DNA of 64,000 nt from Nitrospirales bacterium (GTDB taxonomy: Bacteria; Nitrospirota; Nitrospiria; Nitrospirales; UBA8639), in contig OY820905.2 in NCBI GenBank assembly GCA_963555755.3, forward strand, positions 2,592,001-2,656,000, read 5' to 3'. Below, one piece after another: positions 689 through 5,563 of the stretch (within the stretch, counting starts at the first letter, position 1; the number at the start of each line of letters is the position of its first letter). Both the position numbers and the translations under genes were made by a program. Under the pieces are notes generated by a model. That model worked only from the letters and a program-made list of their open reading frames with translations. It was not told the origin of the DNA and searched no databases.

Positions 689-777
689 TAGGTACCTGTC
701 CCAGATTAGACGAATCTACTGCGGGTGCCCTGGATTTGGCCAGATCTTCCGATCCTTTTCGTTGAATAGTCCCACTA
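689..777. repeat. MITE family M1, left half (split by IS3 composite transposon)
   Basis: Terminus TAGGTACCTGTCCCAGATTAG resembles the IR of 29522..29634; joined to 5483..5563 it rebuilds the uninterrupted sequence seen at 7815..7912. Confidence 0.8.
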
Positions 778-834
778 TAAGATGGTCGGGAAAGTCAAAC
801 AGTTTTTTCGGGTTAGATAAGTGGACGCTTCTCC

Positions 835-1665
835 TCATGCTGCCTGCTTCAGCAGGATGTCTCCGAAGTATATTTCTGCTGGATAATTATATTCGAGGGA
901 TTGATGCTCTCGCAGGTTGTTCTACCGCTCAAAGTAGACCCGCAATCCTTCGCGACAGTCTGCGACATTTCGATACCCTTTCAAATACCCTTCTTCTTGT
1001 TTCACCGTTCGCCACAGCCGTTCGACAAAGACATTGTCTAAGGCCCGGCCTTTCCCATCCATGCTGATCTTGATCTGATCGGCCTTGAGGAGGCCGGTGA
1101 AGGCTTCGCTCGTGTACGGGCACCCCTGATCCGTATTAAAGATCTCCGGGTTTCCATATTGCGCGAGCGCCTCCTGTAAGGCCTCAATACAGAAGCTGCG
1201 GTCCAGCGTCGTTGAAATCCTCCAGGAGAGGACATAGCGGCTATACCAATCGATGATGGCCGTCAGATACACAAAACCTTTGTGCAGGCGCACGCAGGTA
1301 ATATCCGTGCTCCACACCTGATTCGGACGGGTGATGGCCACTCCCCGGAGCAAGTACGGATATTGTTTGTGTGAGGAGGTGGCCACCGAGAGACTCTTCT
1401 TGGGATAAATAGCCGCGACCCCCATACGGCGCATCAGCCGCCTCACTGTGTCCCGTCCCGCCACCAGCCCATATCGCTTCTTCAGAGCCGGATGCAAGCA
1501 GCGGGTCCCACGGGTGGGATTCTCGGTGAACAGTTCATCTAGTTTCTCCCTCAAGTGCAAGTCCCTCGCAGTCAATTCAACGGGAAGATAGTAGAAAAAC
1601 CCCCGTGACATCGATAACAACTCACATTGCCTCGTGATCGAGAGTACCGCAGCCGACTCAACCAT
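835..1665 (-). pseudogene. IS3 orfB (DDE integrase core), premature stop near the C-terminus
   Basis: WSTDIT...FNTDQG...DNVFVERLW motifs; TAG at 922-924 where copy 2 has TAT and continues YNNLREHQSL. Confidence 0.85.
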
Positions 1666-1673
1666 GGTCTTCC

Positions 1674-1980
1674 TTACAGCAGGTTCAGTTTCTTTAAGCT
1701 TTTTTTTAGAAAATCGATCTCCATGCTTTGTTGGCCAATCCGTTGGTGGAGGGTATCGCGTTCCTCCTTCAAGCTCCTGAGAGCATCCTGGTCCGCCTTG
1801 TTTCCACCAAACACTTCCGACGCCTTTTCCAGAAACTCCGTCTTCCCATTCCTGATCTGATTGGGATGCACATCAAATTCGCTCGCTAACTCGGCCAGGG
1901 TCTTCCCATCTTGTAGGGTGGCAAGCACCACTCGTACCTTGAAATGGGCGTCATAATGTCTCCGCTGCCGTTTGGCCATG
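1674..1980 (-). CDS. IS3 orfA (HTH)
   Basis: MAKRQRRHYDAHFKVRVV...LAELASEFDVHPNQI; A8G candidate -1 frameshift run at 1699-1707. Confidence 0.85.
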
Positions 1981-2062
1981 GTGGACTCCTTCTTGGTTAA
2001 GTGACCAATTGAATCCACTTATCTTATCCCAGCGATTTGTTCAAATTCTCCCAACCATTATA

Positions 2063-2301
2063 CCGTGATTGATTTACTTAAAGACATTCAGGCCAAAAAC
2101 AATATTGGTTTCTTGTTTATCAGCCACGATCTTTCAGTAGTCAAAGCACTGTCTGCCCGAGTATTAGTGATGCAAAAAGGTGAAATAATGGAGCAGGGCA
2201 CAGCAGAAGAGATCTTCCACCATCCGTAGCATGATTACACTAAAAAGCTGATCAAGACTTCGTTTGATTTGGAGGAAGAAGCAACAGAGGGTGCTGCGTA
2301 G
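2063..2301 (+). pseudogene. 3' fragment of peptide ABC transporter ATP-binding gene (YejF/DppF-like)
   Basis: Own translation: VIDLLKDIQAKNNIGFLFISHDLSVVKALSARVLVMQKGEIMEQGTAEEIFHHP*HDYTKKLI; 5' end cut by IS, internal TAG at 2227. Confidence 0.85.
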
Positions 2302-2380: not shown

Positions 2381-2412
2381 AAAAAAACTGCCGCAATGAT
2401 GCGGCAGTTTTT
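2381..2412. terminator. bidirectional rho-independent terminator
   Basis: AAAAAAACTGCCGCA-ATGA-TGCGGCAGTTTTT between convergent genes. Confidence 0.85.
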
Positions 2413-2421
2413 ATTCTAAGT

Positions 2422-3999
2422 TTAGCGGTTACGCGGTTCTGTTCTCATCCCCATTAACAAGCTTACGCACATGAGTAATAGAATAACCGTGAAAGGTAGG
2501 GCGGTTGAGATCGCGCCTGCCTGTAATGCCTCAATTGCCTTCGTGCCGCCAACCCAGAGCAACACTGCTGCAATCGCGCCTTCTATTAACGCCCAAAATA
2601 TACGTTGGGGAATAGGTGCATCAACTTTACCGCCGGCAGTAATACTGTCGATAACCAGAGAGGCGGAGTCTGATGAGGTCACGAAGAACACCAATACTAA
2701 TATCACCGCAAGCATGGGTAACAGGTTACCCATAGGTAATATATCAAACATCTGGAACATAGCTAAAGGCACTTCTGTTAAACCGTCACTGCCTAGTGTA
2801 CCTATGTTATTCGCCACTTGGTCAATCGCCACACCACCAAATACCGACATCCATAATATCGTCACCGCAGTAGGAACAAGTAATACCGCCGTAATAAATT
2901 CACGTACAGTACGGCCACGTGAGATACGGGCAATAAACATACCAACGAATGGTGACCATGAAATCCACCACGCCCAGTAAAATACCGTCCACCCGTGCAT
3001 CCAGGCTTCATCTTCACGACCGATTGGATTACTCAGCGGGATGAGATTTTCAATGTATCCCATTATCGTGGTCGGGATAGTTCCCATAGACACAGTGAAA
3101 GTAACGAGTGCAACAAAAATTAACAAAACGATAGCAAGTAACATATTGATATTACTAATTACTTTAACGCCGCCATCAATGCCACGTGCCACCGAAACAA
3201 CCGCAAGCAGGGTAACGACAATAATAATAGTGATCTGTAAGAACAGGCTGTTATCAATCCCGAAAACGTGATGGAAACCGCTGGCAGCTTGCTGTGCGCC
3301 TAAGCCGAGAGATGTTGCCAGACCAAATAAAGTGGCTAATACCGCAAGAATATCAACAATATGTCCAGCCCAACCCCAAGTGCGGTCGCCTAAAATAGGA
3401 TAAAATACCGAGCGCATTGAAAGCGGTAAACCTTTGTTGTAAGCAAAAAAGGCTAACGATAAGGCAACCACACCATAAATAGCCCACGGATGTAGGCCCC
3501 AGTGAAACATGGTCGCGCCGAGCGCCAGTTTGGCTGCTTCCGGAGTATTGGCGGTGACATTAAGCGGTGTTTCATACCAGCCGGTATAATAAGCGACGGG
3601 TTCAGCCACTCCCCAAAACATTAAGCCAATACCCATACCGGCAGCAAATAACATTGCTATCCAGGACATCAGGCTATAATCCGATTTGGCATCATCGCCA
3701 CCTAAGCGGATTTTACCGTACGGTGATACAATCAAGGCTAAACAGAAGATCACAAAAAAATTGGCAGACCACATGAACAGGTCATCAAAGGCACCGATAA
3801 TTTGCCATTTGATGCCGTCTAAGAAGGTTTTTGAGGTTTCAGGCTCAACCCATAACATGGCCATTAAAAAGATGGCGATTAAAGATGTACTAATGCCAAA
3901 TACTGGATTATGTACATCAAAGCCCCACTTTTGAACGTTATCTTGCCCAACAGTATAATCAGTATTATCTATACTATATCTATCCTTATTTATACTCAT
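2422..3999 (-). CDS. BCCT family betaine/carnitine/choline transporter
   Basis: 525 aa, ~12 TM; WIAMLFAAGMGIGLMFWGVAEP, FHWGLHPWAIY, WTVFYWAWWISWSPFVGMFIARISRGRT signature motifs. Confidence 0.95.
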   Translation of the reverse strand: MSINKDRYSIDNTDYTVGQDNVQKWGFDVHNPVFGISTSLIAIFLMAMLWVEPETSKTFLDGIKWQIIGAFDDLFMWSANFFVIFCLALIVSPYGKIRLGGDDAKSDYSLMSWIAMLFAAGMGIGLMFWGVAEPVAYYTGWYETPLNVTANTPEAAKLALGATMFHWGLHPWAIYGVVALSLAFFAYNKGLPLSMRSVFYPILGDRTWGWAGHIVDILAVLATLFGLATSLGLGAQQAASGFHHVFGIDNSLFLQITIIIVVTLLAVVSVARGIDGGVKVISNINMLLAIVLLIFVALVTFTVSMGTIPTTIMGYIENLIPLSNPIGREDEAWMHGWTVFYWAWWISWSPFVGMFIARISRGRTVREFITAVLLVPTAVTILWMSVFGGVAIDQVANNIGTLGSDGLTEVPLAMFQMFDILPMGNLLPMLAVILVLVFFVTSSDSASLVIDSITAGGKVDAPIPQRIFWALIEGAIAAVLLWVGGTKAIEALQAGAISTALPFTVILLLMCVSLLMGMRTEPRNR

Positions 4000-4197
4000 T
4001 AATCCTCATTTAGAACAATGCTGTTCTATTTGGTGTATTTGTTGTTCGTGGAGTCTGTTAACAAAATTGATGATAAATATCAGAGAAACAATAAATTAGG
4101 AAATAAAAAACCGCAATACAAGCGGTTTCTTTACGTCAGATCAACAACAGGCAAGAGAGTGAAAAGCGCGTCGAGAGTCAGCTCTTACAGGGTTCTA

Positions 4198-5482
4198 TAA
4201 GGTGGTCGGGAAAGTCAAACAGTTTTTTCGGGTTAGATAAGTGGACGCTTCTCCTCATGCTGCCTGCTTCAGCAGGATGTCTCCGAAGTATATTTCTGCT
4301 GGATAGTTATATTCGAGGGATTGATGCTCTCGCAGGTTGTTATACCGCTCAAAGTAGACCCGCAATCCTTCGCGACAGTCTGCGACATTTCGATACCCTT
4401 TCAAATACCCTTCTTCTTGTTTCACCGTTCGCCACAGCCGTTCGACAAAGACATTGTCTAAGGCCCGGCCTTTCCCATCCATGCTGATCTTGATCTGATC
4501 GGCCTTGAGGAGGCCGGTGAAGGCTTCGCTCGTGTACGGGCACCCCTGATCCGTATTAAAGATCTCCGGGTTTCCATATTGCGCGAGCGCCTCCTGTAAG
4601 GCCTCAATACAGAAGCTGCGGTCCAGCGTCGTTGAAATCCTCCAGGAGAGGACATAGCGGCTATACCAATCGATGCTGGCCGTCAGATACACAAAACCTT
4701 TGTGCAGGCGCACGCAGGTAATATCCGTGCTCCACACCTAATTCGGACGGGTGATGGCCACTCCCCGGAGCAAGTACGGATATTGTTTGTGTGAGGAGGT
4801 GGCCACCGAGAGACTCTTCTTGGGATAAATAGCCGCGACCCCCATACGGCGCATCAGCCGCCTCACTGTGTCCCGTCCCGCCACCAGCCCATATCGCTTC
4901 TTCAGAACCGGATGCAGGCGGCAGGTCCCACGGGTGGGATTCTCGGTGAACAGTTCATCTAGTTTCTCCCTCAAGTGCAAGTCCCTCGCAGTCAATTCAA
5001 CGGGAAGATAGTAGAAAAACCCCCGTGACATCGATAACAACTCACATTGCCTCGTGATCGAGAGTACCGCAGCCGACTCAACCATGGTCTTCCTTACAGC
5101 AGGTTCAGTTTCTTTAAGCTTTTTTTTAGAAAATCGATCTCCATGCTTTGTTGGCCAATCCGTTGGTGGAGGGTATCGCGTTCCTCCTTCAAGCTCCTGA
5201 GAGCATCCTGGTCCGCCTTGTTTCCACCAAACACTTCCGACGCCTTTTCCAGAAACTCCGTCTTCCCATTCCTGATCTGATTCGGATGCACATCAAATTC
5301 GCTCGCTAACTCGGCCAGGGTCTTCCCATCTTGTAGGGTGGCAAGCACCACTCGTACCTTGAAATGGGCGTCATAATGTCTCCGCTGCCGTTTGGCCATG
5401 GTGGACTCCTTCTTGGTTAAGTGACCAATTGAATCCACTTATCTTATCCCAGCGATTTGTTCAAATTCTCCCAACCATTATA
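4198..5482 (-). mobile_element. IS3-family insertion sequence, copy 2 (orfB broken by TAG at 4738-4740)
   Basis: Direct repeat of 778..2062 offset by 3420 bp; orfA 5094..5400; orfB split 4255..4737 / 4738..5085. Confidence 0.92.
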
Positions 5483-5563
5483 CTATTCGCCTCAAACGAT
5501 CGAAACATCTGACCCAAACCAGCATATCCTCGCAACGATCGCTAATCTTGGACAGGCTCCTAG
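5483..5563. repeat. MITE family M1, right half
   Basis: Ends CTAATCTTGGACAGGCTCCTAG; continuous with 689..777 across a CTA duplication. Confidence 0.8.

Follow-up and report, generated by a model that had tools for sequence, protein, structure and literature searches.

An IS3-flanked unit with broken transposase genes carries a Moritella-like BCCT transporter gene inside a miniature inverted-repeat element of a Nitrospirales bacterium

In this work we analysed a 64,000-nucleotide stretch of the genome of a Nitrospirales bacterium (the window; G000:C1:2592001-2656000, part of a 4.61-Mb contig), near the start of which two copies of an IS3-family insertion sequence (IS) enclose an intact gene for a transporter of the BCCT family. 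The two copies lie in the same orientation, differ at 10 sites (99.2% identity) and are the only close copies of this IS in the whole assembly, the remaining IS3 elements being 42-59% alike to its OrfB. The 2,135 bp of cargo between them (2063-4197) have a GC content of 0.434, undercut by only 1.4% of 2,159 equal-sized genome windows, and hold the end of an ABC ATPase gene (79 codons with an internal TAG), a terminator-like hairpin and the BCCT gene. An initial annotation had described direct IS3 copies around 2.1 kb of lower-GC DNA with these contents, and all of this was confirmed; the broken state of both transposase genes was absent from it and was found here. The trinucleotide CTA stands outside the IS pair on both sides, as a 3-bp target duplication, and an extra CTA is present inside the element at 4195-4197, at the inner edge of copy 2, where it differs by one base from a CTG conserved at the same place in Moritella loci. 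The IS ends were set at the T four bases ahead of GTGG/ATGG, by analogy with related elements; they might lie one base away, base 2062 also suiting the donor codon.

The OrfB of the element passes the IS3 model NF033516 (215, cut-off 160) and also matches PF01527 and PF00665, and a run of eight A residues is the predicted -1 frameshift site, where the -1 frame would lead from orfA into orfB. Terminal inverted repeats of IS3-family elements end 5'-TG...CA-3', and 3-4 bp of target are duplicated; here the ends are imperfect inverted repeats with a 3-bp duplication, and the termini read TA, related elements having TG or TA there. The two copies carry different nonsense codons, at 922 in copy 1 and at 4740 in copy 2, each derived relative to two relatives; both, moreover, have the same substitutions at conserved sites of the transposase (P instead of Q in DQGCQY, G instead of V in QEEVY). 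A composite transposon has at least one working transposase, and none was found here, given the two nonsense codons and the lack of a close copy elsewhere in the assembly; the unit is a relic of the composite-transposon kind, transposase-dead now. Judging by its sequence, the IS belongs to the host lineage: its GC content is 0.515, relatives reach 93% (to an IS end) in the congener G005 and 83% in G390, and none of the four Moritella genomes searched holds a match. On the same grounds we rejected the idea that the IS was brought along with donor DNA, and capture of the cargo probably happened inside a Nitrospirales cell. No second site of the composite was found among 41 relatives, nor any plasmid copy in 72,556 records at 80% cover. 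Contig C2 was rejected as a vector, since its open reading frames are chromosome-like, with one transposase, and it has no cargo match; its 14 kb (L275) hold lipoyl synthase-like, peptide ABC transporter and sensor kinase genes, and it may be a chromosomal piece left unplaced by the assembly, not a plasmid.

The whole 4.7 kb sits in one host repeat, as had been proposed: 689-777 joined to 5486-5563, that is the element minus one CTA, restore a 167-bp sequence. Because its ends match those of two 1,666-bp IS1182-family elements, this repeat is classed as a miniature inverted-repeat transposable element (MITE), being short, non-coding, bounded by terminal inverted repeats and present in about 100 copies. 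Among 98 paired hits of the family in the assembly, 167 bp is the commonest length (29/98; 43/98 measure 166-168 bp), and the commonest flank pair is TA/TA (28). The two 1,666-bp elements, which match the MITE ends at 21/23 nucleotides and score 377 against 270 with the IS1182 model, are the candidate autonomous partner. The empty sequence had been placed at ~7821-7850, which proved to belong to another MITE copy, truncated on its left. The site is truly empty in the congener G006, where the flanking genes are the same, MITE and cargo are both lacking, and TAG occurs once, against twice at the locus studied here. The order of events is MITE insertion first and IS3 unit second. Two observations concern the MITE family at large. 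Another repeat family, bounded by inverted ends of 20 bp and represented at 7635-7812, is often nested at one fixed MITE position and makes forms of 296 bp and longer, of which ~30 copies are near 296 bp; and a contig of RNA run X8 departs from the MITE near 776 into unrelated sequence, possibly because the same MITE site is occupied elsewhere by a further insertion. Coordinates are collected in Table 1.

Table 1. Features of the IS3-flanked unit and its surroundings (positions in the window)
Feature	Position	Strand	Remarks
MITE left half (of 167 bp)	689..777	+	TAG at 689-691; ends akin to the genome's IS1182-family element; includes CTA 775-777
Target duplication CTA, left	775..777	.	
IS3-family copy 1, 1,285 bp	778..2062	-	
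orfB, copy 1	922..1665	-	nonsense codon at 922; final 29 residues missing
orfA, copy 1, HTH_Tnp_1	1674..1979	-	A8 run at ~1700-1707; -1 frame continues into orfB
ABC ATPase 3' remnant, Moritella-like dipeptide/YejF-type	2063..2301	+	TAG inside
Two-way terminator-like hairpin between convergent genes	2370..2425	.	z -5.8/-6.2
BCCT transporter gene, intact, 525 aa, Moritella-like	2422..3999	-	
Moritella-like BCCT upstream region	4000..4197	-	ribosome-binding site; altered promoter-like motif; terminator-like hairpin 4095-4140
IS3-family copy 2, 1,285 bp	4198..5482	-	orfB nonsense codon at 4740, ahead of catalytic domain
Target duplication CTA, right	5483..5485	.	
MITE right half	5486..5563	+	terminates in TAG 5561-5563
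Separate left-truncated copy of the same MITE	7815..7912	+	outside the element

The cargo BCCT is a full-length PF02028 protein (589 bits, model positions 1-484 of 485), which passes TIGR00842 (462, cut-off 407.55), fails the OpuD-type betaine_BCCT model NF047988 (510.7 vs 650) and falls below the BetT model NF007399 (405 vs 695). Among the 120 matches listed, the best 44 are 88-92% identical to it, and nearly all the named ones are from Moritella; a search of 301 host-phylum genomes found 18 with a BCCT match, all of which besides the cargo itself are 38-46% alike. Trees of 156 and of 50 proteins place it with Moritella, inside a Moritella-Psychromonas-Shewanella clade, and in approximately unbiased (AU) tests on 30 proteins two other groupings are rejected, that with host-type BCCTs at p 3.6e-5 and that with Aliivibrio at p 3.5e-4. 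The trees omit loci with a tblastn piece below 430 columns or with a stop (e.g. L204, L205), and the native protein of G006 was added whole to the 50-protein tree and to the AU set. The rest of the cargo points the same way, the ABC remnant showing 79-81% DNA likeness to the end of a Moritella dipeptide/YejF-type ATPase gene and positions 4000-4196 being 76% alike to the region upstream of the Moritella BCCT gene. The N-terminus had been likened to Vibrionaceae BCCTs in the initial annotation, and this was not borne out: Moritella is closest, and the Vibrionaceae donor is rejected with the Aliivibrio clade (the AU test covered Aliivibrio only). The broader proposal, a cross-phylum capture by a nitrite oxidiser, gains support from the host RpoA, which is in a 90% cluster with that of Ca. 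Nitronereus thalassa, from the AU test against host-type BCCTs and from contig joins at host depth (see below); a grouping with Nitrospirota homologues, named beforehand as the result that would overturn it, was rejected by trees and AU tests, and the comparisons proposed for the BCCT and the ABC remnant found both foreign and Moritella-like. We therefore regard this as almost certainly a genuine IS3 composite, now lacking a working transposase, that brought a Moritella-like BCCT from one phylum into another. A third BCCT clade, apart from the native and cargo types, occurs in some family and order relatives (L231, L232, L233, L221-L226) and suggests further independent acquisitions. A conserved non-coding block lies upstream of the Moritella BCCT (L002:5740-5850 and other loci); the window retains its last 40 bp, cut by copy 2. 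Rfam recognised no family in the cargo or in this block (3 loci searched), the one hit being a thiamine pyrophosphate riboswitch downstream in L002.

The genome holds a second BCCT gene, of native OpuD type (G000:C1:2444266-2445753; L262:2767-4253), which adjoins a fused glycine/sarcosine/dimethylglycine methyltransferase gene for betaine synthesis. A BCCT match of any kind is present in 21 of the 24 host-family genomes searched, and the native type is widespread in the family, so that BCCT function is not new to the lineage. The G006 orthologue passes NF047988 (678 vs 650), and the G000 gene has a 1-bp deletion near L262:3554 relative to the three congeners, out of five tried, that align there. 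Contigs of DNA runs X1, X2 and X4 and of RNA run X8 (4/4 runs) cross the deletion site without a gap; the frameshift is therefore real in these populations, and an assembly error is excluded. Protein records include no full-length native protein above 97%; the truncated half is recorded on 2 contigs only, which is uninformative on the frameshift. Relative to G006, dN/dS amounts to 0.084 and 0.093 in the two parts separated by the break and to 0.093 in a neighbour gene, and this resemblance indicates that the break is recent; as no other decay is seen, the native gene likely broke after the cargo arrived. The only intact BCCT of the assembly is thus the cargo gene, a foreign homologue intact beside a broken native one, as in xenologous displacement. 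Ends of an IS1595-family element were also seen at the native locus in part of the X2 and X4 populations, at L262:3370-3381, within the gene, and at L262:4262, 9 bp ahead of its start, with a 12-bp overlap and a depth of ~41 vs 81 in X2 and a depth of 24 in X4. Relaxed selection could explain these hits, as could selection to silence the gene or an influence on the histidine-rich genes downstream. The family counts ~40 copies of 1.0 kb, with ends nearly identical genome-wide; one lies in the window at 28492-29501, and three are in tandem at C1:4003054-4006218.

Could the locus be an artefact, in which a shared IS served to link the host chromosome to DNA of a gammaproteobacterium from the same culture? 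DNA runs X1 and X4 come from two studies, and either may be the source of the assembly. Each yields one 3,450-nt contig that passes from the IS through the cargo to the next IS end, and a short contig that links the left MITE half to the IS. The right junction, from copy 2 to the MITE, is absent from the contigs of both runs, and no record spans the whole unit, which weighs against our reading and is what an artefact would predict; the unbroken IS-cargo contig implies that the assembly graph lacks the right-junction branch, which may have been pruned next to the high-depth MITE. Nonetheless, an artefact is highly improbable. The 167-bp MITE is restored exactly, with its 3-bp duplication; runs from two studies each give an uninterrupted IS-cargo contig, with no loose ends listed at the cargo borders; nonsense codons lie in the ABC remnant and in both IS copies; and the IS is of the host lineage. 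Depth had been suggested as a check, cargo coverage matching another genome being the result to fear, and in X1 the IS-cargo contig stands at 72.5 per copy vs 69-86 for host contigs, so that the cargo is at host depth. Sediment runs X10-X19, which share 0.11-0.13 of words, give no evidence either way. As to the route, DNA of a Moritella-like donor would have entered a Nitrospirales cell, where resident IS copies would have excised it after inserting, on one side, into the ABC gene and, on the other, upstream of the BCCT gene; the unit would then have moved to this MITE, or recombined into an IS already present there. The donor itself is unsampled, since at four-fold sites the cargo BCCT is 0.57-0.63 from 11 Moritella genes (0.10-0.55 among those), and since the ABC gene lies apart from the BCCT gene in the 6 of 13 Moritella-genus genomes where both occur; this lack of linkage also counts against the proposed capture, and no locus with the two genes adjacent was found in 13 Moritella-genus genomes or among the 80 best BCCT loci. 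As the unit lies inside one MITE with a single 3-bp duplication, it likely arrived by one IS3 transposition event. It could instead never have transposed as a whole, a single IS3 having entered the MITE with the CTA duplication and a circle of IS plus cargo having recombined into it later. The changes shared at conserved transposase positions fit this account, in that the common ancestor of the two copies may already have been defective, and so does the CTA at the inner side of copy 2, which is only one base off the donor's conserved CTG and may be a coincidence. Neither a free circle nor a third copy was seen in the assembly, and we find the circle somewhat unlikely, it being understood that transposition and recombination yield an identical final structure.

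From its sequence, the cargo BCCT is predicted to be a sodium-coupled importer of glycine betaine-type osmolytes, sodium coupling being a property of the family. Aligned to BetP, the glycine motif AGMGIG (120-125, transmembrane segment 3) is intact, and the six aromatics of the pocket (box of transmembrane segments 4 and 8; W167, W172, Y175, W344, W345, W348) are kept; they are those named for BetP and Vibrio BccT1 in the accessible part of 10.1101/2020.05.29.123752. Broad-range Vibrio BCCTs import glycine betaine, choline, dimethylglycine and proline, and some of them ectoine or dimethylsulfoniopropionate (PMC7876524, accessible part). Several findings speak against a working gene. Seven changes affect columns that are at least 97% conserved, including S428P; six are unique relative to 120 homologues, the highest number among the 25 most isolated sequences. 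The intact frame is weak evidence of selection, since at the rate of the neighbouring DNA the probability of no nonsense codon is 0.16-0.25, and the dN/dS relative to Moritella (0.02-0.04) is saturated and mirrors selection in the donor lineage, not after transfer. The motif TGCTA(A/C)ACT, found upstream in 11/12 Moritella loci, reads TGTTAACAG here; and the hairpin at 4095-4140 would stop read-through from copy 2. A sigma-70 scan, which gave 8 sites with 5.3 expected and none before the BCCT start, is uninformative here. In RNA run X8 cargo cover is patchy, at a depth of 2.7-4.6, like that of the IS and the native pseudogene and against 16.9 at the betaine-synthesis gene region, DNA carry-over being possible in this run. 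Finally, two Opu/ProU-like ABC systems have open frames, both scoring below curated cut-offs, so that betaine import need not rely on a BCCT. A fused OpuAC/OpuAB transporter is encoded at L273, flanked by genes resembling ergothioneine synthesis genes (EgtB- and EgtD-like), and its substrate may be ergothioneine rather than betaine.

Copy number was estimated from the depth of the loop contig, for which 1.31x single-copy depth is expected with one copy and 2.31x with a tandem duplication. In X1 it stands at 1.10-1.37x, or 0.80-1.06 cargo copies; in X4 its depth of 96.2 against baselines of 42.7-52.8 gives 1.82-2.25x, or 1.52-1.95 copies. The X4 contig carries copy-2 alleles at eight sites (886-1503) and the copy-1 allele at 1863. 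This switch between 1503 and 1863 fits unequal crossing-over in the stretch 1504-1862, which at 359 bp is the longest identical stretch between the IS copies. Taken together, these data make it probable that the IS-cargo unit is tandemly duplicated in X4. Against this, a single run supports the duplication, with a single depth value for each contig, and in X1 all the listed sites have the copy-1 allele with no raised depth, so that allele choice alone is weak evidence. Single-copy contigs vary indeed (36-53 in X4, 69-86 in X1), and library bias or contig-level noise might account for the X4 depth. We find this unlikely, as the X4 per-copy value of 73.6 is 1.4x above the top baseline, the X1 value lies within its own range, and the allele switch sits in the longest identical stretch.

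What, then, does the cargo do? The native BCCT would have broken after the cargo arrived and the cargo gene taken over; its copy number would now change only via recombination between the IS copies, by loss or tandem duplication. That the cargo gene compensates for the broken native BCCT is an even bet. It might instead be a decaying passenger, poorly expressed and drifting neutrally, the native gene having broken independently in a cell where BCCT uptake is dispensable, as betaine is made and ABC importers remain. The seven changes at conserved columns, the altered upstream motif, the low RNA cover, and the open ABC systems together with the intact betaine-synthesis gene would all be explained in this way, as would the IS1595-type insertions at the native locus in X2 and X4, which are expected of a dispensable or disfavoured gene. 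The glycine motif and all six aromatics of the pocket are preserved, however, the unit persists although IS-IS recombination could delete it in one step, and the raised X4 copy number would be hard to reach by drift alone, even if hitch-hiking would suffice. A passenger appears rather unlikely. The best overall explanation, to which we give a probability of about 0.68, is that an IS3-borne, Moritella-like BCCT unit sits in the MITE and stands in for the frameshifted native BCCT. A bolder version, which we hold only tentatively and think doubtful, is that gene replacement is still in progress: a Moritella-like broad-range carrier was captured, the native OpuD is broken and still taking IS hits, and selection is raising the dosage of a poorly expressed foreign gene through dead IS copies. 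A crossover between the two nonsense codons, at 922 and 4740, would also give a nonsense-free IS copy at the duplication junction, which could remobilise the unit; the X4 pattern points to a crossover elsewhere.

Composite transposons of the Tn10, Tn5 and Tn9 type consist of two copies of one IS around a cargo. The unit described here resembles them in having one IS twice around unrelated DNA and a single outer target duplication, and differs in that its IS3 flanks are of the recipient lineage with both transposases broken, its cargo is an osmolyte-transporter gene from another phylum and its target is a MITE. In a laboratory experiment, Lind et al. in 2010 are said to have found compensatory amplification after inter-species gene replacement; the parallel is that a foreign homologue replaces a lost native function and that dosage may offset poor expression, whereas here the acquisition is natural and known from sequence alone. 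In the tandem amplification of ISAba1-crp-osmC in Acinetobacter baumannii, a small unit between direct IS copies likewise gains copies (PMC13574567, accessible part), whereas the present case concerns a foreign gene in a slow-growing chemolithoautotroph, its amplification being deduced from the contig depth of one run. The cargo protein is likened to BccT1-BccT3 of Vibrio parahaemolyticus by family: the numbers of its six pocket aromatics differ from those in BccT1 by 36 throughout (10.1101/2020.05.29.123752, accessible part), and it has 525 aa vs 562 aa in BccT1 and groups with Moritella. With the OpuD-like BCCT of marine Nitrospirales it shares the family and the predicted role, whereas NF047988 recognises the native type, which groups with Bacillus proteins, and not the cargo type, which shares ~42% with the native one. 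As far as the accessible parts of the reports go, marine Nitrospirales normally have one OpuD-like BCCT beside a fused betaine methyltransferase (PMC10579370, PMC7784846, 10.1101/2020.07.02.185504, PMC12342949), and OpuD/BetT-like BCCTs, OpuABC and fused betaine methyltransferases are reported among them (PMC10579370, 10.1101/2020.07.02.185504, PMC12342949, PMC12903955); in Ca. N. alkalitolerans a transposase-linked Nqr locus was suggested as a lateral transfer (PMC7784846, accessible part). In the literature searches made, no nitrite oxidiser was reported to carry a gammaproteobacterial BCCT between IS copies; supplementary tables of the cited papers, which might list the gene, lay outside these searches.

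Each step is a known kind of event; their combination is unusual, unusually complete and testable. The locus keeps transfer steps that are usually erased, namely donor fragments, capture ends, the target scar and the empty site in a congener. Marine nitrite oxidisers are energy-poor, and glycine betaine costs three methylations per molecule, so that osmolyte import bears on salt tolerance and on exchange with heterotrophs. With the native gene broken and the copy number apparently sample-dependent, replacement of a native transporter by a foreign one and selected amplification would be directly testable in this organism.

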